Origin: Candidatus Latescibacterota bacterium
GTDB taxonomy: Bacteria; Latescibacterota; UBA2968; UBA8231
DNA: 64,000 nucleotides
Reading direction: 5' to 3'
Assembly (NCBI GenBank): GCA_965223905.1
Contig: CBDCXV010000009.1
Span: forward strand, 1-64,000
Shown piece by piece: positions 1,569-14,790 of this stretch (positions are counted from its first letter, which is position 1; every line of letters begins with the position of its first letter). A program made the translations under genes and the position numbers. The notes beneath the pieces are model-generated. The model made no database searches, was not told where the DNA came from, and was given only the letters and a program-made list of their open reading frames with translations.

Positions 1569-3209
1569 TGGACTAGCCCTGCGCATGTGGGGCGAACCTG
1601 CCGAAGTGTTGAACGAGGAGTACGCGATCCGGTACATCCCCACGCGTGTGGGGAGAACGAGACCATCGAGACCCTCGACGCGCTCGGCAACGGTACATCC
1701 CCACGCGTGTGGGGAGAACACTACTCGGCAAGCTCGCCGGCGCCCGCAAGGCGGTTCATCCCCACGCGTGTGGGGAGAACTTTCTACTACTTTCCGCTCC
1801 CGGTGCTACCTGAATTACGGTTCATCCCCACGCGTGTGGGGAGAACTTCTCTGCCTCCACCGAACCGAGCATTGTATTTCGGTTCATCCCCACGCGTGTG
1901 GGGAACAACGACATGATTTAATTCCGGACGGTCGACCTGGATAAACGGTTCATCCCCACGCGTGTGGGGAGAACTACGCCATCGCGGCACCGAGCGGCAT
2001 GTCTTTCGGTACATCCCCACGCGTGTGGGGAGAACGATTTCGTCGGTGCGAGACTTCCCGAGCTTCGCGGTTCATCCCCACGCGTGTGGGGAGAACGAGG
2101 ACGGGCTAAACGTGCGAGACGAGGTTCTGATCGGTTCATCCCCACGCGTGTGGGGAGAACGAGGACGGGCTGACGTGCGAGGAGGTTCTGATCGGTTCAT
2201 CCCCACGCGTGTGGGGAGACACTCCATCATGCAGCGGTAGCGTCCAACCCGGCGACGGTTCATCCCCACGCGTGTGGGGAGACACGCCCCCGGGCCCGCC
2301 CGCGAAAGAGGCATCGCCGACGGTTCATCCCCACGCGTGTGGGGAGAACCAGGTCGATCTCGTAGGGGAGGTTGACGGTCTCGGTACATCCCCACGCGTG
2401 TGGGGAGAACGTGGACGCCTACACCGGTCTGCTCGGGTACCGCGGTACATCCCCACGCGTGTGGGGAGAACGGCATGACGGAACTGCTCTGCCTTCTCGA
2501 TTCCGGTACATCCCCACGCGTGTGGGGGAGAACGAACTCACTAAGCGGAAAGGCAACCTCGCTTCCGGTTCATCCCCACGCGTGTGGGGAGACACTCAAC
2601 CTCACCGCGAGTGAAGCTGCGGGCCTGCGGTTCATCCCCACGCGTGTGGGGAGACACGGCATGACGGAACTCTCTGCCATTCTCGATTCCGGTACATCCC
2701 CACGCGTGTGGGGAGAACGAACTCACTAAGCGGAAAGGCAACCTCGCTTCCGGTTCATCCCCACGCGTGTGGGGAGACACGGCTCCCGCCACGGATACGA
2801 CCGTTTTCAAATGCGGTTCATCCCCACGCGTGTGGGGAGACACGGACAGGTCGCCAATGCCGACCTCGTGGCGAACGGTTCATCCCCACGCGTGTGGGGA
2901 GAACGGCATCGGCGGCGGGGTGGAACTGCCCGGATCCGGTACATCCCCACGCGTGTGGGGAGAACGTCTCGTCCGGCACTTTGATCGCAACCAATAACGG
3001 TACATCCCCACGCGTGTGGGGAGAACTGCCGGCATCGCGCTCCGCGGGCGTGATCCGCCGGTACATCCCCACGCGTGTGGGGAGAACGGCTTGAGGGGAA
3101 GCTCGGTACTCGGAGACGACGGTACATCCCCACGCGTGTGGGGAGAACCATCCGCCCGTGCTCGTTATGGGCACCAGTCCCGGTACATCCCCACGCGTGT
3201 GGGGAGAAC
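1569..3209 (-). CRISPR. Type I-E CRISPR array, 27 repeats (one degenerate terminal copy at 1569-1597) and 26 spacers, mostly 32 nt
   Basis: Repeat on + is CGGT[A/T]CATCCCCACGCGTGTGGGGAGAAC (29 nt; - strand GTTCTCCCCACACGCGTGGGGATG[T/A]ACCG) with a ~61-nt period and a CCCCAC/GTGGGG hairpin; adjacent to I-E cas genes; degenerate copy at the low-coordinate end indicates - orientation. Confidence 0.98.
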
Positions 3210-3304
3210 TCCTACAAATTGCATAGGAATAGTGTGGACAGCGCTACATCTTGGAGTCGAGTGCACTTGATATCCGAGCGCCTGCAACCCCAACCAGGCT
3301 ATGC
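3210..3304 (-). promoter_or_regulatory. CRISPR leader region
   Basis: Short non-coding, less GC-rich stretch between the last cas-operon gene and the first uniform repeat, opposite the degenerate end. Confidence 0.7.
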
Positions 3305-4060
3305 TCAGCTCCTGGTAATCTGAGGTACGCCCATCGGGTGGCCGCTCATTGACTGCCCATACAGGCGAACCAAAATCCGTTTCAGATTGACTACATCCTC
3401 TGCATTGTATTCAAGTAACTGCTGCAAGGCACCCGATCGGCCCTTGAGGTGCTCCGCCCATAGTGACCCAGTGTCCGCCCCTGTCAAGTCGGACATCTCA
3501 CGATGAATGCCAAACCTCCTCTCGCACTGTTTCAAACCGCCGCGAAAGCCACGCGAATACAGTTCCAGCCACATATCAAGGTGTGGGTGATCTACACGCG
3601 CTCCCAATTCGCGCCGCAGAAGTGGGAGGTCGAACCGGTCGCCGTTGTAAGAGACGAGAAACTCAACCTTTTCCAAATCCTGTACAAGGTGATGCAGGCT
3701 CGCACCGTTCACGTAGGTCTTGACTTCGTCTTTCCATAGTAGCGCCGCAGTTGTAATTCGATCCCGTGAACTCAGGCCAGTGGTTTCAATGTCGATGAAG
3801 GCGGTGCGACCAGCGATATGGGGCCAAATCCGAACTCGTTCTCCGCAAGGGAGGGTTTGTAGAAAAAACCTCCACGCCTGCCGCTGTAAAGCTGATTGAC
3901 TCGCATCGAGGTGTCTACCAACCCTGCAGGACTTGCCTTTGCCTAAGAATTCTTCCGCTCGCAAGCGCAGATCCCGCCAGCATAAGACACCCTTCCGCCA
4001 CAGTTTCATCTCAGCGGAAACGCCGAGTCCGTCGAGATGACAGAAGGTCCGCTCCAGCAT
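3305..4060 (-). CDS. YprB-like / RNase_H_2 DEDDy 3'-5' exonuclease, CRISPR-associated by position
   Basis: Motifs FIDIETTGL (ExoI), SYNGDRFDLP (ExoII), YNAEDV (ExoIII); start overlaps the cas2 stop (TGATG). Confidence 0.85.
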   Translation of the reverse strand: MLERTFCHLDGLGVSAEMKLWRKGVLCWRDLRLRAEEFLGKGKSCRVGRHLDASQSALQRQAWRFFLQTLPCGERVRIWPHIAGRTAFIDIETTGLSSRDRITTAALLWKDEVKTYVNGASLHHLVQDLEKVEFLVSYNGDRFDLPLLRRELGARVDHPHLDMWLELYSRGFRGGLKQCERRFGIHREMSDLTGADTGSLWAEHLKGRSGALQQLLEYNAEDVVNLKRILVRLYGQSMSGHPMGVPQITRS

Positions 4061-4353
4061 CAGGCTGGTTCAGGCTCTTTCCATTTCTCGGCAATAAGGG
4101 CCAAGCCGCACTCGCTCACGATGCTGCGTGGATTTTGGCCATAGGACTCGACGAAGAAGCCCTGCGCGGAGTCGTCGCTGGAGATCACTAACATTCCCAT
4201 TTCTTGCCCATGCCGCCGAACGTAGGCGATCACATTTTCTCGTGTACGGCGGTTGACTGTGCCAACGAAAACATTGGCACGAGGTTCGATAAACCACCGT
4301 TTTAGGAGACCGCGCACCGCAGGAGGTGTATGACTGGCGACGATGACGGTCAA
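4060..4353 (-). CDS. cas2: Type I-E Cas2
   Basis: 97 aa, PPAVRGLLKRWFIEPRANVFVG typical of Cas2e; TTG start overlaps the cas1 stop. Confidence 0.93.
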   Translation of the reverse strand: MTVIVASHTPPAVRGLLKRWFIEPRANVFVGTVNRRTRENVIAYVRRHGQEMGMLVISSDDSAQGFFVESYGQNPRSIVSECGLALIAEKWKEPEPA

Positions 4354-5183
4354 TGCAAAAGCTCGGAGATATCCCGGGGCATACGACGGAGCAACCGAAC
4401 TTCCTCGATTTTTATTTTCAATAGGGAGAGTACCTGCTTCTCATCCGCATCGGGATCCAGACTCACAGCGTGAAATGCAGCCGGAAGTGTCGTTTCAGGC
4501 TTGTACATATCCGCTATGTCGAAGACAAACGGCAAGGTTCCTCCAAGGTGGATAAAACCGAGTTGCGGCAGGTATCCCATGGAACACACGACGGCCGTTG
4601 TCAGTGCGTACAGTGCAGCATTTGCGGCCGAAACCGCCCGGTTGATATTGTCGGCGAGATGCCAGTTGCTCTTGTCGTACTGGCGTCCTTTCCATGTCAC
4701 ACCGTAACGCCGGCCCATTTCCTCATATAGCCCCTTGACTCTCCGACCTTCCATTCCTCGAAGCTCCTGAATGCCGATGCCGGTTAATTCTTCGCCTGGA
4801 AAGCGCTTGGCAAACATCCGATGGGCGATCTCCCGGCTCTTCGAGCGCGAAGCGCGTTGAGTAGCGTGGTGGCGGGCGTTGTCACTGTCGTGGGTCGGGC
4901 TCACGCCGAATGAGTAGAAATGTGTTCCCTCTTCACCTACCCAGCACACCGGAGTATTGCACTCACTGCAGGCTTTAATCGCCGCGTGTGTAACAGTTGT
5001 TCCGGGTCCGAGCATGAGAGCGCTTAGGGTGGCTATGGGAATTCGTAGGACTGTTCGATCTGCGCCGATCCACTTCACACTGGCATCGTCCACCTCCAAG
5101 CGTCCATGCTCGAGGTAAAGAGGGGTCCAACGTTCCCTTGCCGGTGTCAATGTATCGAGTGGAGGTTTCTCAAAGACGGGCAT
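4350..5183 (-). CDS. cas1: Type I-E Cas1
   Basis: LMLGPGTTVTHAA, LRGMEGRRVK, LGFIH, FVFDIADMYK motifs. Confidence 0.97.
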   Translation of the reverse strand: MPVFEKPPLDTLTPARERWTPLYLEHGRLEVDDASVKWIGADRTVLRIPIATLSALMLGPGTTVTHAAIKACSECNTPVCWVGEEGTHFYSFGVSPTHDSDNARHHATQRASRSKSREIAHRMFAKRFPGEELTGIGIQELRGMEGRRVKGLYEEMGRRYGVTWKGRQYDKSNWHLADNINRAVSAANAALYALTTAVVCSMGYLPQLGFIHLGGTLPFVFDIADMYKPETTLPAAFHAVSLDPDADEKQVLSLLKIKIEEVRLLRRMPRDISELLH

Positions 5184-5195
5184 CAGGCTGCCCTG

Positions 5196-5894
5196 CTATT
5201 CTGCCTCGAGTTCGTCCGGGCTGCCTGTCCAAACTCTCCGGGGCTGGTTTCGTTGAGAAGAATCGAAGACGGCGACGAGCGGGACATCCATCAATGTATC
5301 CGTACCGTCTTCGAATCTGTCGACTTCCCTGACCAAGCGGACGAGGTATCCGCCTGAGTGGTTGGTCAGATGATCGATGGCCTCGTCTCGAGAGCGGTGC
5401 AGCCCCTGGCAAATGAGGTCGGCGGGCAAGCAGCATTTTCGCCCCAGCCACACACCCCACTTGGGATCAAACAGTGCCGCCTCGCAACGCCGGAGGAGCG
5501 ATACCTGACCCGTGAGCACAGCACCAAAGGCCGCATCTGCAAGGTACTCCCGTTCTGTCAGAACAGTACCTTTCGGCTTGCCGTCTTCGGCAGTGGTGGG
5601 AATGAATCCGCCCTCCGTTTCGCGATTGTAGCCGCCGCCAACGGTGTGATAGTCTCCCCAGAGGGTCAGTCGGTGCTTCTTCTCGAAAACAAGAATCTCC
5701 ATGGACAGTTCTGCGAGTGTCTCCAGCATAGTCTGGTCAGCGCGCTGGACCCCCATGGCCGCACACAGGATTCCCGTGATACCGCTTCTCGTGGGGTACG
5801 GTAGTGTTGTTCGACGATTATATCGGCTTGAAATTCCCCATGATTGCATCGGTCCATCAAGATACAGCGCCAGGACCTCGCTCTCAGGTGACAT
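5196..5894 (-). CDS. cas5: Type I-E Cas5 (CasD)
   Basis: LDGPMQSWG, PTRSGITGILCAAMG, DYHTV, REYLADA, LGRKCC; start placed at ATG 5894 overlapping the cas7 end. Confidence 0.95.
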   Translation of the reverse strand: MSPESEVLALYLDGPMQSWGISSRYNRRTTLPYPTRSGITGILCAAMGVQRADQTMLETLAELSMEILVFEKKHRLTLWGDYHTVGGGYNRETEGGFIPTTAEDGKPKGTVLTEREYLADAAFGAVLTGQVSLLRRCEAALFDPKWGVWLGRKCCLPADLICQGLHRSRDEAIDHLTNHSGGYLVRLVREVDRFEDGTDTLMDVPLVAVFDSSQRNQPRRVWTGSPDELEAE

Positions 5895-6951
5895 GACTGA
5901 CCAAACCTTTGATCTGAGCATCGAGGGTGATTTCAGGTACGCGGTACGCCGTGCCATCAAGGCCGTACGTCTTTTTCAGGGTTTCGTAATGTTCCTCGAG
6001 GGCCTCGCGGGATTTTTCAACCAGTCCGTCGGAGGACCAGATCGGCTTCTCGAAGGCATTCGCGAGGGAAAGAGGTTGACCCGACTTCCGGTGAAGACCC
6101 AGTATGAACTGCGGTCTCGTGGCGGCGAACATTGAAGTGTGACGGGCGCTCGGCACCGCTTCCACAATTGCCCTAAGAAAGGTTGTAACGACCGCTTTGC
6201 GATCATCCGGCGTGAGATGATGCAAGTGATCTTTATCGGCAAGAAGGTCCAGGTTGATTCCTGCATACCGGTAATAGCAGGCAGCATTGAACTCCAGGGT
6301 CCCCATGTGTCCGGCGCCTTCGGACTCGTCAGGTTTCAAGTCATCAACTGCCGTGAAGAAATCGATCTCGTTGCTCACGCGATGAGTCGAAATGGCATGG
6401 CTGAAGAATGCGGCACCCTCCAGAGTTAGAGAATGGTCGTCGGCCACCATACGGCCAAACATGGCAATGTCGGCCATGTCGCGCGGGCGTGTCTCACCAA
6501 GGGCCTTTTTCAAATTTCCTCGCTTGAGCTGGACTTTCTCACTTTCCTCAATGTCCCGAACTGCGGCGTCGGCAATCGCTTCGATTTCTCCAGGCGATAA
6601 ATAAAGTGCTACGGCGGACTTGTGCGCGTCTTTGTATTTCTTGTCCTGCTTGCCGAGGAAAGTCACAATGCTGGCGCTCTCCTCTCGGGCTATTTTCGGA
6701 TCGACTCCCTTCGATAGGAGGGTGTGCTCGAGTTTCTCGGCAGCGAAATGCCCTCGCTGTCCAGCAAAATGCTCTGGCGAGTTGTAACGCGCGTGCAGGC
6801 GGATCGCACGTTTCCAGGACTGGCTCGACACACGCGCCCGCGGTGCACCGCCGAATACCGCCGTTTTGGGTGCGCCTACATCGTCGCGATTGAGGCAGGA
6901 CACCGGAAAAGATTGCACGATGTGCAGCTCGATGAGTTCCATGGATTCCAT
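5884..6951 (-). CDS. cas7: Type I-E Cas7 (Cse4/CasC)
   Basis: LNRDDVGAPKTAVFGG, RVSSQSWKRAIR, DIAMFGRMVA, DFFTAVDD motifs. Confidence 0.97.
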   Translation of the reverse strand: MESMELIELHIVQSFPVSCLNRDDVGAPKTAVFGGAPRARVSSQSWKRAIRLHARYNSPEHFAGQRGHFAAEKLEHTLLSKGVDPKIAREESASIVTFLGKQDKKYKDAHKSAVALYLSPGEIEAIADAAVRDIEESEKVQLKRGNLKKALGETRPRDMADIAMFGRMVADDHSLTLEGAAFFSHAISTHRVSNEIDFFTAVDDLKPDESEGAGHMGTLEFNAACYYRYAGINLDLLADKDHLHHLTPDDRKAVVTTFLRAIVEAVPSARHTSMFAATRPQFILGLHRKSGQPLSLANAFEKPIWSSDGLVEKSREALEEHYETLKKTYGLDGTAYRVPEITLDAQIKGLVSHVT

Positions 6952-6982: not shown

Positions 6983-7387
6983 TTATTCCTCCGACTTCTG
7001 GAGATAACGCGCCCCAAGAGCGAAAATCTCGGCGGCGGCCAGGACCGCATTGTTGGCATCTGTCCGGTCGGGATCGGCAGTCTCACCCGGATAGCGCACT
7101 TGCACTGCATATTCGGAGAGTTGCGAGCATACCTCTCGGAATTGATCCAGTTCGGGTACCAGACGTGCCGACCTTTCCAGCAGCGGCATCAGATCGTGGA
7201 TGCGTTGGTACTGCACGCCCGCAGCCGTGAGGATCGCCTTGAGGGTCTTTTCCGCGGTCTGCTGTGAGTGGAAGCACGATATGTCGGTGGGACCGTCCTC
7301 AGCATCGAGAACAAGCCGTGCAGTGAAGAGGTCGTGACGGGCCTTCTCCAGCCACTGTGCCGCGAGCGCTTTATCCAGATCGTTCAT
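6983..7387 (-). CDS. HEPN domain protein (COG2250-like)
   Basis: 134 aa; WLEKARHDL, CFHSQQTAEKTLKA, RIHDL, RYPG pattern; overlaps the upstream MNT by 17 nt. Confidence 0.9.
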   Translation of the reverse strand: MNDLDKALAAQWLEKARHDLFTARLVLDAEDGPTDISCFHSQQTAEKTLKAILTAAGVQYQRIHDLMPLLERSARLVPELDQFREVCSQLSEYAVQVRYPGETADPDRTDANNAVLAAAEIFALGARYLQKSEE

Positions 7388-7748
7388 ATACGACGTTCCC
7401 TCGATCGAAGACCTCCGTCACGATATGGTTTGTCGTGCCCCGCCACTTCTCGACTTCGGCTGGCGTGTAGACCAGGATGTCCATGGGGCAAGGGTACGGA
7501 GAGAACAGCAGGCGAATCGGGGCGGCCCGCTTGTGGCGCGGCAGGGTGGAATCCATGACCACCAGCAGATCGAGGTCGCTGTCTTGACCGGTCCGCCCGG
7601 TGGCCGCCGAACCGAACAGGACGATCATTTCAGGATCGCAGTTATGCACGATCGCGCTTATGACACTGTCGATGACATCAGGTGCGATCACAGCCTCTTG
7701 ATCTGGTATCGCCGGCGCCCGCGTCCCTTTCCGAGGCGAGATGTTCAT
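7371..7748 (-). CDS. Minimal nucleotidyltransferase (MNT, Pol beta superfamily)
   Basis: VLFGSAATGRTGQDSDLDLLVV (GS-x10-DxD) and a downstream D in MDILVYTP; ATG 7748 overlaps the cas6 stop (ATGA). Confidence 0.92.
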   Translation of the reverse strand: MNISPRKGTRAPAIPDQEAVIAPDVIDSVISAIVHNCDPEMIVLFGSAATGRTGQDSDLDLLVVMDSTLPRHKRAAPIRLLFSPYPCPMDILVYTPAEVEKWRGTTNHIVTEVFDRGNVVYERSG

Positions 7749-8386
7749 GGCGCGTGGCCGCCATTCTCTGCGCTGGTTGCTTTCAGAAGCAGGAGGCCGA
7801 ACCCGAACGCCTTGGCCGGTCCGACTCCTTTCCGGTACGTCTCGTCGAAGCGTTGCTGGTCCGTAACCGTCAGTATGCCATCGTAATCCACGCGAGCGTG
7901 TGTTATGCGCTGTTTCTTGCGCCAGGAGGTCTGGTCCACGGGCGGCGATACTCGCAGGTGAGCACCCTCTATACTGAACCCGCCTGACTTGCTCTTGCGG
8001 TCCAACCACGCCCGCAGCTCGGCCGGATCGCAGACCCGCGTGCGACGGCCATTTCGCTTGCGCGCCCCGCTTTCACCCTCGCGGACGACCCGTTTGACGG
8101 TGGGATTCGCACGTAACGAAAAAAAGTAGCGTTCACGGCTCAGGAACCTCGGGGCTACAGAACGCGTCTCCCACACGCCCCACTTCTGCGACGCCGGCGC
8201 AGTCGGGGACAGCATCAACGTTTCGAAGACATCGCGATGTACGTCCGTGCGGCTCAGGAACTCGCGCTCTTGACCATCCTGTCCGGGAAACGCCTTCCAA
8301 AGCTGCTGATGCCACGCATACGCATCCGACAATGCCATACTCAGGGCTTCGGTCTGATCAACGCGAATCCGGGTGAGAAACATCAC
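7745..8386 (-). CDS. cas6: Type I-E Cas6 (Cse3/CasE)
   Basis: YAWHQQLWKAFP, FSLRANPT, C-terminal glycine loop GVGPAKAFGFGLL. Confidence 0.96.
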   Translation of the reverse strand: MMFLTRIRVDQTEALSMALSDAYAWHQQLWKAFPGQDGQEREFLSRTDVHRDVFETLMLSPTAPASQKWGVWETRSVAPRFLSRERYFFSLRANPTVKRVVREGESGARKRNGRRTRVCDPAELRAWLDRKSKSGGFSIEGAHLRVSPPVDQTSWRKKQRITHARVDYDGILTVTDQQRFDETYRKGVGPAKAFGFGLLLLKATSAENGGHAP

Positions 8387-8913
8387 TCAGTCTCCTCAGA
8401 ATCGGCCGGAGGCACACTACCCCAGAATTCGGACGCCCATCGTACTTTGGTCCCCTCACGGGGTTCCGGCCAGCGAAAAGAGCGAAGGTCTCGAAACAAC
8501 TGTTCGTAGTCGACCGGAATCCCTTTCTGTTTGGCAGCACGCACAATTTCACCACTACGGTGGCATATATCCGCAACCGAGTCACACACCAACAGCCGAC
8601 GAAATCGGGCATCGAATGACTCCAGTCCCTTCTGCTCGTCCTGCCCCATGGCAATGAGTCGCATGACGGAACCAAGCCCGCCTTTGCCTCCCGGCTCCGG
8701 GTGGGAGGCAAAGGCGGCGGCAACGGCTATGTGAATCCCGCGCTCGTCGTCTTTCTCGAACAGACGACCGCACCAGCGCGCGATATGAGGCCAAGCCCGG
8801 TACGCTCTATCCGCTGCAAAGCCGTGGCGCAGATCGGCCATCATTCCACGATCCTCACGATTACGGTCCAGCCACTCTATGAAATGGCGAGCATGGTCTT
8901 GAGATTGTGTCAT
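8383..8913 (-). CDS. cse2: Type I-E Cas11 (Cse2/CasB)
   Basis: DRGMMADLR, RFRRLL, VDYEQLFRDL, VRWASEFW; lies between cas8e and cas6 with overlapping start/stop codons. Confidence 0.9.
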   Translation of the reverse strand: MTQSQDHARHFIEWLDRNREDRGMMADLRHGFAADRAYRAWPHIARWCGRLFEKDDERGIHIAVAAAFASHPEPGGKGGLGSVMRLIAMGQDEQKGLESFDARFRRLLVCDSVADICHRSGEIVRAAKQKGIPVDYEQLFRDLRSFRWPEPREGTKVRWASEFWGSVPPADSEETE

Positions 8914-10373
8914 GCTGCCTCTGCGTCGAGTTGGCCGGATTGATGCCTCAGAACGAGCTTACGCTGTCCAAGGGCGAATGCCTGGATCTGTCGAGGGGTA
9001 GTATGGGGACATTCGGCCCTATACGAACGAATCATAGCACTCCTTACAGTAACGATCCATTGGTTCAAACTTGCGTCATCGGAACAGGCTTCTTGCGTAA
9101 GTAGATCGCACACGCTGTCCAGTATGCTCCAATAGGTTCGAACCGCTCGCTGTCGGTACCCAATTGCCACGTCAGATTTGGTGGTTTGCAAGGTCTCAGA
9201 ATACACTTTGATCCCCCATTTCAGCATCTTTTCGCCCTCGTCGGCAAAAAAGACACCGTTCTCGTACACCGCCATCTTCTGGTCTCCGAGCAATTCTGTG
9301 GGCACAGAGAAGGTCCATTCGGCGGCATCCAGCACTTTACCCTTGTCGGCTGCAAGTCCGCCGAGCCATACATCCACCACTCCTTGGTCGAAACCAATGG
9401 CGAGATTTGATAACGCGAGTGGCCCGCCGACTTTCGCGGCACCTTTGACTGCCAAGACGCTCGGGGCTTCTCGCCAGGGATGTTTGGCCAGATCGACCCT
9501 GATATACGCGTACTCATCGTCACCTTTCCGATTTCGACGCAGCGCAACGGTAGCCATGGGGTCACGGCTGATCGGCAGCTTTGGGTAGACAAGCCCGTTC
9601 GCCAATGTGCATTTCTTTCTGCCTGCGATTCGGATAGCTCGGGAGAGCGGGACAAGCCGACCGAGATAGGTTGAGGAAATCCCTTCAGTACGATCCGGAC
9701 GTTCAAGCCGTTCAACCGGTATATCCCATACTGGTATGCCGATCTCGCAGGGCATTCTGGTTTTTGGCACAAGATTGAGATGAACGGTGCTAAGAAGGTC
9801 TTCCTTTCTCAAGATCGCATGCAACGCGGATCCCTCGACGCAGGGCGCGTGTTCGGAATGCCGGCCCGTGAGATTGCCTGACCATCGTGTCTCGCCAATC
9901 GTGCCGCCGGGCGAGAAACTTTGGTACGTCACCAAATTGAGCACTACCCTTCCTGGCGACAGCTCTCTACGTTTCGTTGAACCGCCATGGTCGAACAGGG
10001 TGTCGTTGTTCCCCGAAGCCAATCCGAAATCCAGTTTATCGAGTGTTGCGTTATCAGTTGGCTCCAGATTTGGCACCTGCAAGAAGGGCCGCTCTCCGAA
10101 CAGCTCGAATCGGTCTGTGCGTACATCAAGATACTTGAGGCTCGCCGGGACAATTCGCTCGCGGCACGCCAGCCAATCCGCTTCGTCTTCGGGGCCGTCG
10201 AGAGCAGCGTGGGTAATGCACAGGAGCAATCTGGTTACGGCGATTCGCTGGGGTGGCTGCAACGCCAGGTCACGGATCTCGTGCGCCCGCTCGAACAGCT
10301 CTTGGAGCCCTACCTGCCGGGAACGTCCCTCGCCGTCGATTACGGGGATCCAGGGCTCACCAATCAGATTCAT
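8910..10373 (-). CDS. cse1: Type I-E Cas8e (Cse1/CasA)
   Basis: MNLIGEPWIPV start, RFELFGERPFLQ, SGNNDTLFDH. Confidence 0.93.
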   Translation of the reverse strand: MNLIGEPWIPVIDGEGRSRQVGLQELFERAHEIRDLALQPPQRIAVTRLLLCITHAALDGPEDEADWLACRERIVPASLKYLDVRTDRFELFGERPFLQVPNLEPTDNATLDKLDFGLASGNNDTLFDHGGSTKRRELSPGRVVLNLVTYQSFSPGGTIGETRWSGNLTGRHSEHAPCVEGSALHAILRKEDLLSTVHLNLVPKTRMPCEIGIPVWDIPVERLERPDRTEGISSTYLGRLVPLSRAIRIAGRKKCTLANGLVYPKLPISRDPMATVALRRNRKGDDEYAYIRVDLAKHPWREAPSVLAVKGAAKVGGPLALSNLAIGFDQGVVDVWLGGLAADKGKVLDAAEWTFSVPTELLGDQKMAVYENGVFFADEGEKMLKWGIKVYSETLQTTKSDVAIGYRQRAVRTYWSILDSVCDLLTQEACSDDASLNQWIVTVRSAMIRSYRAECPHTTPRQIQAFALGQRKLVLRHQSGQLDAEAA

Positions 10374-12668
10374 TGAAATCGCCTTCCCACATGTCCTCGG
10401 CCGGCTCGACAGCGGCGTCCTCGCGCCGCCAGACACCCCGGTCATCCTTGTAGCCATATCGGGTGCCCTGGCCGTCCAGGTTCTCAAGGAAGCCCTGGCT
10501 GTTGATTTTCAGTACCACGACAGGCCCGTACACCGTGCTACGTAACCAACGGGGCGTAGATCGTTCATTGGCATTCTCGAAGTCAGGGTATTTCGGCAGC
10601 GTTACGAGATTCCCGTGCACTTGGCGGGCAGCCGCGACATCGCGGCGCGCGCCTGCTTCCCACACCAACTCGACCGTCTCGCCACTCGCTAGTTCGAGTC
10701 GCGCTCGCGACGAGTCCATCTGGTCGCAGTCTCTCACCAGCAACACTTTGACCATGGATCTATCGTCGTACCGAGTCAAGGCCGCATCTTCATCATCCGA
10801 CCGGGTAGGCAGATCGTCTCGCGTCATAGCCATGGCCAATTGACCCAACCTGCACTTTTTCTCCGCAAGGTGATCATACAAATCTCGCACCCAGGGCGGT
10901 TCAGTAGTGCCCGACTGGCAATACGTGGCTTCAAGCAGAGTGCGGATCTCGTCCGGCAGCAGGACCTCCGGCCTGTCTTGCCAGACTGTGTAACTTCTCC
11001 ACAGCACATAAGGAGCATACACGTAGCCTGACGATCCGACGAGCTCCTTGAGCTCTCTTTGATCGCGGGCGCTGGAAAGACGGTTCCCGGCGATCAGGCA
11101 GGTTGCCCGGCCCGTTCTGCCCTCCCGCGGGTGGCGCCACAACCTGCCCATGCGCTGAAGCAGCATGTCGGTAGGCGCGAGATCCGTGATCAGCATGTCG
11201 CCGTCGATATCCACGCTCTGCTCGACCACCTGCGTGGCGACGAGAACGCACCCTGATGGGCGGTCACCCTCCTTGCCCAGCCGTGAAAGCCACAGCGTCT
11301 CGAGCTCATCGCGGCGCCAGGGAGGAAATCTCGAGTGCAGCAGCCCTACCTCGATCCCTTCCCTCACAGTGCTCTTCACCAAACCGAAAGCCCTCTGGCT
11401 CCGCGCGACGGTGTTGCAGATCCAGAGCGCGCACTGTCCACTATCAGCCAGATCAGCGGCTTGATCAGCCAGGGTTATCAAACTGTCAGGTACGTAACGA
11501 CACTCAACCCTGCGGGACGCCGGTGGGGGAGTCGTACGCGTAGTGACCTCGTTGCCCGATTGATGGGTGATAAGGGGATACGCCTCGGCTTTTCCATGTC
11601 GGTCCGCACCTGAAAAAAACTCGTTTCGTTTTTCCCGCGTGAGCGTTGCCGATAGTATCATCACCGTGCACTCCAGGCGTAGCAGGCAGTCCACGAGATG
11701 CCTTATCAAGGTGCCCGTGTAAGCGTCGTACGAGTGTACCTCGTCGAGGATGACGACTTTTCCTGCCAAGCCGAATGCTCGCACGAAACCGTGCTTGACG
11801 TTCATCACGGCGAGGAGCGCCTGATCGATGGTGCCGACTCCAAACGGATAGAGTAAGGCTCGTTTGATGGGAGCGAACCACGCACCGCCTGGACGGAGCT
11901 CTTCCCCTCCCGGGTATTGGTCGGCCAACCACGCTTGACCGTGAACGAGGCGTGCGCCCGCCCCGACGCCAAACGCCTGATCGATAAACGCCGCCAAACG
12001 ACTGCGAAGACGGTTGCTCGTCAACCGCGTCGGCAGGGCAAAATAGACACCGTGGTGATGGCCGGCAGCCATCAGCCGATAGGCCGCATACAGCGCGGCT
12101 TCGGTCTTGCCCGTACCCATCGGTGCTTCCAGAATAAACAGGCCTGGGCGATCGGCGAGTTCGTGAACCACGGCCTGCATCTCATTTGGTGACGATATGG
12201 CGGGAAACAGGTCTTCGAACGAACACCCTCGTCTGACCTCGGGGATTGCAAACCCTGCATCCTCCAGCGCGTAGCGGGCGCACGCTCCGTGATCGGCAGT
12301 CTGGGGCAACCCTTCAGCAGGAAACCAGTTTTCGTTCGAGCCGATCCAATCCGCCACCGTTGTCAGTCCCGCTGCGAGCCACAGGGACTCCGGGGTGGGA
12401 GACTTCTCCGGCAGCGGGCCGAACGCCTCGATGAGCACCTCCAGCAGCTTTGACCGTTCCGCCGACCAGCTTTGGCCACCGTAGGGGAAACAAGGCTCTC
12501 GTGCAGCTGACTGGGTCCGTTTGCCGTGGTGCACCCCTGCCACTTGAGACCATGACTGCCACGTTTCGTCACGACCGTGGCTATATCCCCAAGTTCGAAT
12601 GGCTGCTTCACTGACCTCTGCATGGTTCGCGCAGAACATGGCAGGCGTGGAGGTCGTTACAGCTTTCC

Positions 12669-14338
12669 CCTGAATCCGTGATCACTTCTATAGCAAATGG
12701 TCAAGTTTGATATTTAGCATGATCAGGCACTTCTCAACAGAGGATTTGGGTGTCAACGACTCGCCATTACGGCTGATGCCGCTGTCGGTGGCTCTCGACG
12801 TCGGCTGGAGTCGCAAGAACGGGCATACAGGTGCCTTGCGTACGGCGGAGAGTCGAGTGCGGGTGAGATCGTCGCCTTCAGGTGCACACACGCAGGTAGG
12901 TCCGTCTCCAGACATCGAACCAGGGATTGAAACACCCGAAGCTGAGGCCGAAACGGCGCGCATGCCGGACCCAGCGGGCCGCTTGGTACATGAGATCGAG
13001 AAGGACGCTGCGGAGACGACGACGGCCGGCCTTTTTACGAAAAGCCACGTGCTTTTCGGGGGGCAGATTGCCGGACTCGCGCAGACCGATTTGGCCGCAC
13101 AGGCGCAGAGCGTTGTAGGCCATCATGGCCAGCAGCAGCAGGAGCGCGTTGGTGGCGAACTTGCCCGACGGCAGGCGTTCCAGATCCAGGTCCGTTTTCA
13201 ACTCGGAGTGGAATTGCTCGCAGGTGCTGTGCTCGCGGTAGAGCCGGATCACGTGCGCCGGCGGCGCCATCAGGTTGGTCCACCAGGTCTGCACCTCGAT
13301 TTCGGGGATCAGCAGCGCCTGACCGTCGACGCTGATCGTGCGCCGCACGACCTCGTAAACGACGCGTTCGAAGGTGTCCTTGCGCTCGCACACCAGCGAG
13401 CCGGTGAAGATCTCCTTGCCGGGCCGCGGACAGGTGCGCTCGCCCAGGGCTTCGGCGTCCTCCAGCCAGGTCTGTTTCGATTCGCTGCGCAGGTTGCGTT
13501 TGACGATGAAGTCGGTCTTGGGAGTGCGGCGCAACTGCTGTACGGTGGCGATGTCGTCATGGGCGCTGTCCATGCGCACCAGCAGCTTTTCCTTGGTGAT
13601 GCGGCGCGCCAGCCGCAGCGTCTCTCGAATAAAGTCCGGGGCTCCTTCCTGGGAGTGCTGACTGCCTTCGCGCAGCTGGCAGTTGAGCAGATACCCTTCC
13701 TCGCCCAGGTAGGCGAAGATCGGGGCAAAGCCGTCGACCTTCTTGTAGGTCCACGACACCCCTTGTTTTTTGGTGTGGGAGTTGTCGAACACCGACACGT
13801 CGATATCCAGCGCGATCCAGGGACCGTAGCGCCCGTCGGCGACTTCGTAACAGGGGGTGAGCGGCGGCGCGTGACGGGCCACCATGTCGGCCGACTCCTC
13901 TCGAATGGCGGTCTCCCCCTGTGCGCCCAAGCCATCGAGCCGCTGCCGCAGCGTGGCCGCCGACGGCACCGCATCCAGGCCCAGGGCCTGGGCGAAGAAG
14001 GGATCGGTGCGAAACGCTTCCACCGCCTCGAAATCCGGCTTGCCCAGCGCCAGCAAGCCGATCATCGACGTCATCACGTCGCCGTGAGAAACCTCGGGGC
14101 AGGGTCGCTCCGGCAAGAGGATTTCATCCACCCGCGCGGCCAAGCGCGTGCGTCCCATCAAGGCCCCGATCAAGGCCAAGCCCGAATGCGAGGTCAGCGC
14201 TTCTTCGCCCTGCGTAACTTCATACGAAACCAGTCGCAATTCTTCACCTCCAAGGTGAGTGGATATCCTCCTCTAAGATAGCCCACATTCCCCTCGGAAA
14301 ACCACCGAAAATCAAGCTCTGGACTTCACGGATTCAGG
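12669..14338 (-). mobile_element. IS1380-family insertion sequence, 1670 bp
   Basis: 13-bp perfect terminal inverted repeats CCTGAATCCGTGA (12669-12681 / 14326-14338); CTTTCC duplicated at 12663-12668 and 14339-14344. Confidence 0.93.
12878..14239 (-). CDS. IS1380-family DDE transposase
   Basis: 453 aa; LTSHSGL, PSAATLRQRL, LDID, VRMDS, EQFHSELKTD, LPSGKFATN. Confidence 0.93.
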   Translation of the reverse strand: MRLVSYEVTQGEEALTSHSGLALIGALMGRTRLAARVDEILLPERPCPEVSHGDVMTSMIGLLALGKPDFEAVEAFRTDPFFAQALGLDAVPSAATLRQRLDGLGAQGETAIREESADMVARHAPPLTPCYEVADGRYGPWIALDIDVSVFDNSHTKKQGVSWTYKKVDGFAPIFAYLGEEGYLLNCQLREGSQHSQEGAPDFIRETLRLARRITKEKLLVRMDSAHDDIATVQQLRRTPKTDFIVKRNLRSESKQTWLEDAEALGERTCPRPGKEIFTGSLVCERKDTFERVVYEVVRRTISVDGQALLIPEIEVQTWWTNLMAPPAHVIRLYREHSTCEQFHSELKTDLDLERLPSGKFATNALLLLLAMMAYNALRLCGQIGLRESGNLPPEKHVAFRKKAGRRRLRSVLLDLMYQAARWVRHARRFGLSFGCFNPWFDVWRRTYLRVCT

Positions 14339-14790
14339 CTTTCCGTAACAGTAGCTTTGGGAAATACTTGGCCAAGAAACCTGGCGAGACTTTGCCCAGG
14401 TCATGGCAGGCTGCCAGTGTGGCGGAACCATCCGGAAACAGGCGCCGTACCGGTCCGGGGGTCTGGTCCAATAGTGCCTGAGCCACCGAACCCACGATCC
14501 TGCAGTGCTGCTCAACGGATAGCCCTGGGCAATTGGATTCCGTGGACTTCGCTGGACAGTCTTGGAAGGGCAGGGCTGGCTGCTTCTGATTTACACCTTT
14601 GGCGAATCTCGGCATTTGTCAAATAACCGTGTGAAGGCGGGATTTTCGACGAGGTCACCGGTCCGTGCCGGCGATGCGACGCAGGGAATAAACTGTCCGG
14701 CCCGCACCCAGGCGAGAACCCTCGCTTGCCGCCTTCCGGATGGTGCGTTAGCATCCTGCGAACCTCCCTCGGAACAAACCACCGAAGACC

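Follow-up and report, generated by a model that had tools for sequence, protein, structure and literature searches.

A stand-alone PF13482 exonuclease coupled to cas2 as a candidate prespacer trimmer in one branch of type I-E CRISPR-Cas systems

In type I-E CRISPR-Cas systems, can the exonuclease that trims prespacers for the Cas1-Cas2 integrase be a separate protein encoded in the cas operon itself? The question is raised by a stretch of 64,000 nucleotides (nt) from a Candidatus Latescibacterota bacterium (GenBank assembly GCA_965223905.1, contig CBDCXV010000009.1, positions 1 to 64,000; this whole stretch is hereafter called the window), in which an open reading frame (ORF) encoding an exonuclease of the family PF13482 stands between cas2 and the leader of a CRISPR array. 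We refer to this gene as exo (coordinates of all features are collected in Table 1) and to loci with and without it as exo+ and exo-, respectively. According to two reports, in type I-E systems without Cas4, 3'-5' exonucleases of the DnaQ family trim the overhangs of prespacers held by Cas1-Cas2; the trimmers are host enzymes in Escherichia coli (DnaQ, ExoT) and domains fused to Cas2 in Streptococcus thermophilus and Megasphaera, and trimming is delayed on the side of the protospacer adjacent motif (PAM), which is shielded by Cas1 (PMC10284694, PMC10470216). The initial annotation of the locus, made from the sequence alone, had pointed to such fusions of a DnaQ (DEDDh) domain to Cas2. The notion that a trimmer can be encoded in the operon is likewise already known, since Wang et al., citing Makarova et al. 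2020, describe standalone DEDDh exonucleases as widespread ancillary CRISPR components (PMC10284694). Our favoured reading, held with moderate confidence, is that exo is a dedicated, operon-encoded and dispensable 3'-5' prespacer trimmer for Cas1-Cas2 in one branch of type I-E, of which we infer the activity, the substrate and the contact with the integrase.

The exo protein matches Pfam PF13482 (RNase_H_2) with E 5.3e-29 and 101.7 bits (cut-off 22), its residues 87-234 spanning profile positions 1-165 of 165. The motifs read in the initial annotation as D-x-E, N-x3-FD and Y-x3-D are intact (D90-I-E92, N139-x3-F143-D144 and Y218-x3-D222); D90, E92, D144, D162, Y218 and D222 are invariant in 26/26 distinct CRISPR-linked sequences, which, close kin excepted, are 28-41% identical to the window exo, and the acidic DEDD residues of ExoI, ExoII and ExoIII (D90, E92, D144, D222) are also invariant in a 55-row alignment. 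The N-terminal extension noticed at the same time, MLERTFCHLDGLG, is present and conserved family-wide, and the conserved start of exo reads MLxxTFCHxxG(I/L)GxxxExxLWxxG. An AlphaFold2 model built on the 55-row alignment (predicted local distance difference test, pLDDT, 94; predicted template modelling score, pTM, 0.91) has an RNase H-like exonuclease core at residues 86-237 and a helical domain at residues 1-85, in which the sequence pattern and the modelled helices look like a helix-hairpin-helix motif. Foldseek searches against the PDB place archaeal family B polymerases first, through their 3'-5' exonuclease domains (E 3e-6, prob 1.00, query TM score, TMq, 0.45-0.48), with a TREX1 homolog, a PolC exonuclease domain and T7 polymerase behind them.

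By sequence, the closest solved relative of exo is Bacillus subtilis MrfB (= YprB; 8un9, E 1.3e-7, over the exonuclease core). Y218 of exo aligns beside the HH of the MrfB motif HHNEMD and the Tyr is invariant in the exo family; because Y218 sits beside these histidines, the family is taken as a DEDDy-type version. The label “YprB-type” given in the initial annotation consequently holds at the level of PF13482 and not beyond it, since exo has a Tyr whereas B. subtilis YprB/MrfB itself is described as a DEDDh enzyme of mitomycin C repair (PMC11194089). Majorek et al. place PF13482/COG3359 next to the PolB-type exonucleases, predict 3'-5' exonuclease activity and describe the COG3359 group as often carrying TPR repeats (PMC3985635). 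In exo, Pfam finds besides PF13482 only a weak PF10108, no TPR and no PF00929 (DnaQ-like) match at E <= 0.01; the CAS-associated “DEDDh” profile of PADLOC gives 24.4 bits in fragments only, the curated NCBIfam models give no match, and no Cas4-type PD-(D/E)xK nuclease or iron-sulfur match is present in Pfam or NCBIfam, the fold of exo being RNase H-like. Since no NCBIfam model covers exo and the “DEDDh” Cas profile barely touches it, surveys of adaptation modules probably overlook this gene.

The gene is tied closely to cas2. As the initial annotation had stated, and as the sequence confirms, exo is the last gene before the leader and its ATG shares 1 base with the TGA stop of cas2e (...CCA GCC TGA TG..., hence TGATG). 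The order on the minus strand is cas3, cse1, cse2, cas6e, a nucleotidyltransferase/HEPN pair, cas7e, cas5e, cas1e, cas2e, exo, leader and array, and the type I-E gene set is complete by Pfam and equivalog models (cse1, cse2, cas7e, cas5e, cas6e, cas1e, cas2e, cas3), accompanied by an array of 29-nt repeats.

A neighbourhood survey for cas1e-cas2e-exonuclease, as the initial annotation had proposed, shows that the arrangement recurs. It covers 50 informative loci of type I-E in which Cas1 is close (59-100% identity, window included) and which were found through Cas1 in metagenomes and in genomes of two bacterial groups; they comprise 39 with cas2-exo-array and 11 with the array directly after cas2. 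The metagenome scan used two Cas1 sequences, those of the window and of L067, a locus of a Kiritimatiellia metagenome-assembled genome (MAG), and retrieved 38 loci (Cas1 59-90% identical): 23 have cas2-exo, in 2 (L110, L126) cas2 is followed immediately by the array, and 13 end too early to tell. Exo follows cas2 in all 23 counted exo+ loci, each with at least 1 kb beyond cas1; the exo sequences of L103 and L118 duplicate those of L102 and L116. A further metagenome scan, with an alignment of the close exonuclease clade (A2), gave 234 pattern matches and 0 confirmed. Among 401 genomes sampled from the class of L067, 19 have a close Cas1, 15 of them exo+ (one ending at the contig edge after 44 residues) and 4 exo-. 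L067 itself has the layout of the window (cas3, cse1, cse2, cas6e, a small ORF, cas7e, cas5e, cas1, cas2, exo), with the array 47 nt past the exo stop. Start-stop coupling recurs as well: an overlap of 7 nt between the exo start and the cas2 stop is seen in 12/25 locus rows, and the other 13 have an overlap of up to 8 nt or a distance of <=13 nt, except L106 and L123, where the starts are uncertain.

An exonuclease tree was computed from 66 rows, namely 26 CRISPR-linked, 36 non-CRISPR (every second locus plus three of five chosen loci, two being without a called ORF, with L062 excluded for its very long branch) and 4 without context data. In this tree a branch with a support of 99 in the Shimodaira-Hasegawa-like approximate likelihood ratio test (SH-aLRT) splits the 26 CRISPR-linked rows and P0005, which has no context data, from the other 39 rows, and a single origin of the CRISPR-linked exonucleases appears likely. 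The exonuclease subclades are recovered in Cas1 trees too. A Cas1 tree of 59 rows, for which three distant Cas1e served as the root, has two basal exo- rows and a 99-supported clade of 54 rows that contains all 39 exo+ rows; inside this clade, the exo- rows are a clade of 7 rows with a support of 95, L135, whose sister is the window, and L110, whose sister is L107. The exo label requires 4 changes on this tree against a mean of 10.1 for shuffled labels, and the simplest reading is that exo was gained once and then lost at least three times. Synonymous divergence (dS) is unsaturated in four pairs; in these, the ratio of nonsynonymous to synonymous divergence (dN/dS) of exo is 0.16, 0.09, 0.09 and 0.15, compared with 0.03-0.09 for Cas1, the dN of exo being 2.5-5 times that of Cas1; these values show purifying selection on exo. 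With its homologues, this selection in related loci and the confident model (pLDDT 94), exo is a real gene and no chance ORF. The proposal of the initial annotation that a different exonuclease family has been recruited, as a separate polypeptide, to the adaptation module of type I-E is thereby supported, through the recurrence of the arrangement, the separate clade and the co-inheritance with Cas1.

It is because of this position, coupling and co-inheritance that prespacer trimming as a separate subunit is the most likely function of exo. In the mechanism that we propose, exo would be translated together with Cas2 and, docked on the integrase or working close by, would trim Cas1-Cas2-held prespacers at their 3' overhangs to the length required for integration.

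Several observations weigh against this proposal. A repeat spacing of 61 nt is common to exo+ and exo- arrays, with no visible effect on spacer length. Exo is dispensable: it is missing in 11/50 loci, among them L135, whose Cas1 is the nearest to that of the window (79% identity), and the 7-row exo- clade. In the window's phylum (168 genomes), the 5 other genomes with a close Cas1 (68-79% identical) are all exo-, with the array 100-230 nt after cas2, and each has a strong PF13482 gene elsewhere, PF13482 being common (11/14 control genomes). The trees, in which there are long branches, come from quick searches and have SH-aLRT as their sole measure of support. No fusion of a PF13482 protein to Cas2 was found among 11 longer exo homologues, 2 longer Cas2 homologues and the 150 best library representatives, which is weak evidence. 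In the window cas3 is split by an insertion sequence, and this type I-E system may be decaying. Finally, the structure prediction with Cas1-Cas2 that had been suggested in the initial annotation gave weak support: a complex of two Cas1, two Cas2 and one exo scored 0.46 (runs 0.00, 0.50 and 0.46, hence one of three at zero; best of 3 controls 0.00), with a contact agreement of at least 0% and a partner pLDDT of at least 78 across the runs. The mark applied to such predictions was passed by 58/80 solved complexes and 2/110 mismatched pairs and, at scores <=0.60, by only 7/80 solved complexes and both passing mismatches. The prediction is thus weak, and docking is therefore not claimed.

The wider PF13482 family adds to these points. 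Searches yielded 356 matches to exo with a word-indexed search, at least 470 confirmed relatives in the genome collection and 835 proteins at E <= 1e-30 in the representative library; typical members have 275-285 aa and are 33-43% identical to the window exo, and in the word-indexed search only P0002-P0004 are close to it (70-75% identity). Among the best 80 of the at least 470 loci, searched by tblastn with the window Cas proteins, type I-E genes lie beside the exonuclease only in L067, and a generic scan of 94 wider-family loci (L002-L095) found a CRISPR-like array in 1/94, again L067. The other loci have neighbours with lineage-specific synteny only (8/80 loci without a called exonuclease ORF were left out of this count). 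In the window's order an exo homologue (34-41% identity) is present in 14/75 other genomes, with cas1 or cas2 within the 1.5-kb flanks in 0/14. Homologues 32-36% identical occur on 11 haloarchaeal megaplasmids, with no cas genes near the one inspected (H3), and a phage “DnaQ-like exonuclease” gives one weak match. Fusion partners in the wider family also include MrfA-like helicases, DinG-like helicases and DUF429, which gives the family a DNA-repair look. The C-terminal fusions seen in P0166, P0205 and P0249-P0260 are a DinG/XPD-like helicase, HEAT repeats with an MrfA-like helicase carrying the MrfA zinc-binding domain, and DUF429, the latter accompanied in some cases by an AAA kinase-like domain. 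The PF13482 family is a mobile exonuclease module, and the helicase, DUF429 and AAA fusions fit a repair-type ancestry. The initial annotation had named closest homologues rarely near cas genes as a finding that would speak against an adaptation role; this is not what is seen for the close clade, and it applies only to the wider family, with its single array in 94 loci. Of the 150 best library representatives, about 57 are given a higher score by a hidden Markov model (HMM) of the CRISPR clade than by that of the housekeeping clade, and the CRISPR-linked clade is probably diverse.

Such a family background makes it conceivable that exo is an MrfB-like housekeeping exonuclease of the repair type, captured once beside the leader and carried along without a role in CRISPR. 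The absence of cas genes and arrays near 79/80 of the best genome loci (best 80 of at least 470) and near 14/14 loci of the window's order, together with the repeated loss of exo, would agree with this. We nevertheless regard it as very unlikely, since the CRISPR-linked exonucleases have been kept over a deep divergence (28-41% identity) at dN/dS 0.09-0.16 with all catalytic residues retained, the overlap with cas2 is conserved, their clade evolves apart from the housekeeping clade, and the L067 genome has a second strong PF13482 gene besides its CRISPR-linked copy. The window genome has one other PF13482 domain only, in a 1135-aa frame on another contig (C11).

A role in CRISPR may also be granted to exo and placed elsewhere. 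It could act in adaptation at another step, making or resecting prespacer precursors from Cas3 or RecBCD products, in naive or primed adaptation, or tidying integration intermediates, so that Cas1-Cas2 would not be its ruler. Linkage, coupling and co-inheritance are equally good evidence for this, the contact predicted with Cas1-Cas2 is weak, and the helix-hairpin-helix-like N-terminal domain suggests that exo may bind DNA alone; however, the place immediately behind cas2 and the way in which exo follows the Cas1 subclades favour the integrase over Cas3 as partner, and the known type I-E DEDD exonucleases act in the trimming of overhangs (PMC10284694, PMC10470216). This alternative seems to us unlikely. 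Quite improbable, in our view, is that exo is an accessory interference nuclease or a separate defence function that merely shares the operon, for instance by degrading the nicked or unwound target after Cascade-Cas3. Exonucleases of 3'-5' polarity are known from several defence systems, the family is fused to defence-related and repair helicases, and the locus tolerates other inserts such as the HEPN/nucleotidyltransferase pair, but exo is always found at the adaptation end of the operon, overlapping cas2, never beside cas3 or the Cascade genes, and it is intact here although cas3 is split.

Table 1. Features of the type I-E locus in the window
Feature	Position	Strand	Basis
CRISPR array, 29-nt type I-E repeats, spacers mostly 32 nt	1569..3209	-	
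Leader, 95 nt, exo stop to first repeat	3210..3304	-	
exo, stand-alone PF13482 (YprB/MrfB-like) DEDDy-type 3'-5' exonuclease, 251 aa	3305..4060	-	Pfam, AlphaFold2, Foldseek
cas2e	4060..4353	-	PF09707 E 2.6e-21; TIGR01873
cas1e	4350..5183	-	TIGR03638, 301 bits vs cut-off 215.6
cas5e (start probably ~5894)	5196..5960	-	TIGR01868; PF09704
cas7e	5884..6951	-	PF09344 E 1e-99; TIGR01869
HEPN (6983-7387) and minimal nucleotidyltransferase (7371 to ~7748) pair	6983..8009	-	PF05168 E 1.8e-24; PF01909/PF18765
cas6e, between cse2 and cas7e (non-canonical place)	7745..8386	-	PF08798 E 1.7e-43; TIGR01907
cse2 (cas11e)	8383..8913	-	PF09485; TIGR02548
cse1 (cas8e; start probably ~10373)	8910..10487	-	PF09481 E 4.6e-66
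cas3 main part, without first ~90 HD-domain residues	10357..12639	-	Cas3_HD profile positions 99-207 only, and helicase domains
Insertion sequence splitting cas3, with DDE transposase ORF 12878-14239 (-)	12669..14338		PF13701 E 1e-33
cas3 N-terminal fragment, start of HD domain (HDLGK)	14337..14615	-	similarity to L067 Cas3

Downstream of exo, the first repeat lies at 3181-3209, 95 nt from the exo stop, and in the related loci this distance is mostly 22-95 nt. A conserved leader motif, TCTTTGACAA, is found ~55-60 nt upstream of repeat 1, often overlapping the exo stop codon (L096, L100, L101, L104, L106-L108, L113, L115, L116, L119, L122; also L110); it looks like a -35 box of sigma-70 promoters. 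In the window leader there is no clear copy of TTGACA. A second leader motif, CAAGATGTTGG, adjoins the first repeat. Because the leader is very short, the 3' end of exo may double as leader and promoter. In L106, a 14-nt match to the core of the CRISPR repeat (CGCACGTGGGGATG) lies inside exo at 7327, 648 nt ahead of the array. The window array consists of 26 regular repeats and one terminal degenerate repeat, with a spacing of mostly 61 nt. Within 2463-2780 it contains a duplication: a spacer-plus-repeat unit of 71 nt at 2525-2595 recurs with 100% identity at 2710-2780, and the adjacent spacers are near-copies. Odd repeat spacings in the window and in L067 are possible homopolymer assembly errors; in the window, repeat variants (GGTACATC/GGTTCATC, GAGAAC/GAGACAC) and spacings of 62-66 nt gather in the older half of the array and are either real or errors of this kind.

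The insertion sequence in cas3 measures 1.67 kb, is bounded by perfect 13-nt terminal inverted repeats (12669-12681 and 14326-14338) and breaks the gene within the HD domain: the N-terminal fragment matches residues 7-70 of the L067 Cas3 (47% identity, E 5e-14), and the main cas3 ORF aligns to residues 94-819. Interference is probably disabled in the window genome, while the adaptation genes and exo are intact despite the split cas3. The cas island has a G+C content of ~55-60%, against 69% in the flank 1-1500. The nucleotidyltransferase of the toxin-antitoxin-like pair located between cas6e and cas7e has an MntA-like match below the NCBIfam cut-off; such a pair is also present in L096 (3272-3968), L067 has a small HEAT-repeat ORF in its place, and in several metagenome loci cse1 and cse2 stand ~1 kb further apart. 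Hot spots for gene insertion thus seem to exist in the operon. The order cse1-cse2-cas6e-cas7e-cas5e-cas1-cas2 is that of the related type I-E branch (window, L067, L096-L126, L170-L188), and more distant type I-E loci of the window's phylum have cas6e between cas5e and cas1. Contig C11 of the window genome carries, at 364721-365425 and 1268053-1268610, a second, distant Cas1 (35% identity) and the PF13482 domain in the 1135-aa frame; this Cas1 shows that the genome has a further CRISPR-Cas locus.

Compared with the systems already described, exo is closest in presumed role to the trimmer-integrases Cas2-DEDDh/Cas2-DnaQ of S. thermophilus and of the Megasphaera NM10-related system, which are likewise 3'-5' exonucleases of the DEDD superfamily in a Cas4-less type I-E adaptation module. 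In those, the domain is fused to Cas2, belongs to PF00929, has a His in motif III and its trimming has been demonstrated (PMC10284694, PMC10470216), whereas exo is a separate polypeptide of PF13482 with a Tyr in motif III and an extra N-terminal helical domain. Like E. coli DnaQ (Pol III epsilon) and ExoT, for which the same sources describe action in trans on prespacers held by Cas1-Cas2 (PMC10284694, PMC10470216), exo is proposed to work in trans; those two, however, are unlinked housekeeping genes, while exo is encoded in the operon, overlaps cas2 and is co-inherited with Cas1. MrfB shares the Pfam family of exo but is described as a DEDDh enzyme (PMC11194089), and its partner is the helicase MrfA; exo has a Tyr in motif III, no C-terminal TPR domain that could be found, and as neighbours cas2 and the array in place of an MrfA/YprA helicase gene. 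The exonuclease domain of family B polymerases, its best fold match, has the same Y-x3-D motif III, but exo lacks a polymerase domain. With Cas4 it shares the presumed role, that of processing prespacers for Cas1-Cas2 where a system requires trimming on the PAM side, and not the fold, which in exo is RNase H-like. Cas4 is a PD-(D/E)xK nuclease with an iron-sulfur cluster. According to the initial annotation this arrangement is not known to have been characterised, and literature searches found no paper that ties the PF13482 family to cas2 or to type I-E, although a listing in supplementary classification tables is possible; in the main-text passages retrieved from Shmakov et al. (preprint) and Altae-Tran et al. 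it is not mentioned.

What the finding means follows from the present state of this field, in which trimming and PAM removal in Cas4-less systems have been worked out only for host enzymes of the DnaQ family and for Cas2-DnaQ fusions. Exo is a conserved, operon-encoded trimmer candidate of another family, which suggests that more than one answer to the need for a trimmer has arisen. Being a two-piece system, it would make trimming and integration separable by genetics and biochemistry, and close relatives with and without exo provide natural controls. We tentatively suggest, with less confidence than for the trimming role itself, that it may represent an independent third way of processing prespacers, alongside Cas4 and Cas2-DEDDh: a PolB-like exonuclease of the DEDDy type with its own DNA-binding domain, recruited once as a detachable trimmer subunit of Cas1-Cas2. 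If this were true, exo would merit a cas gene name, the 3' end of exo would double in many loci as CRISPR leader/promoter, the motif TCTTTGACAA over the exo stop codon thereby binding the gene physically to the site of integration, and the exo+ and exo- sister loci (the window and L135, L107 and L110) would allow a direct measure of the benefit that a dedicated trimmer brings.

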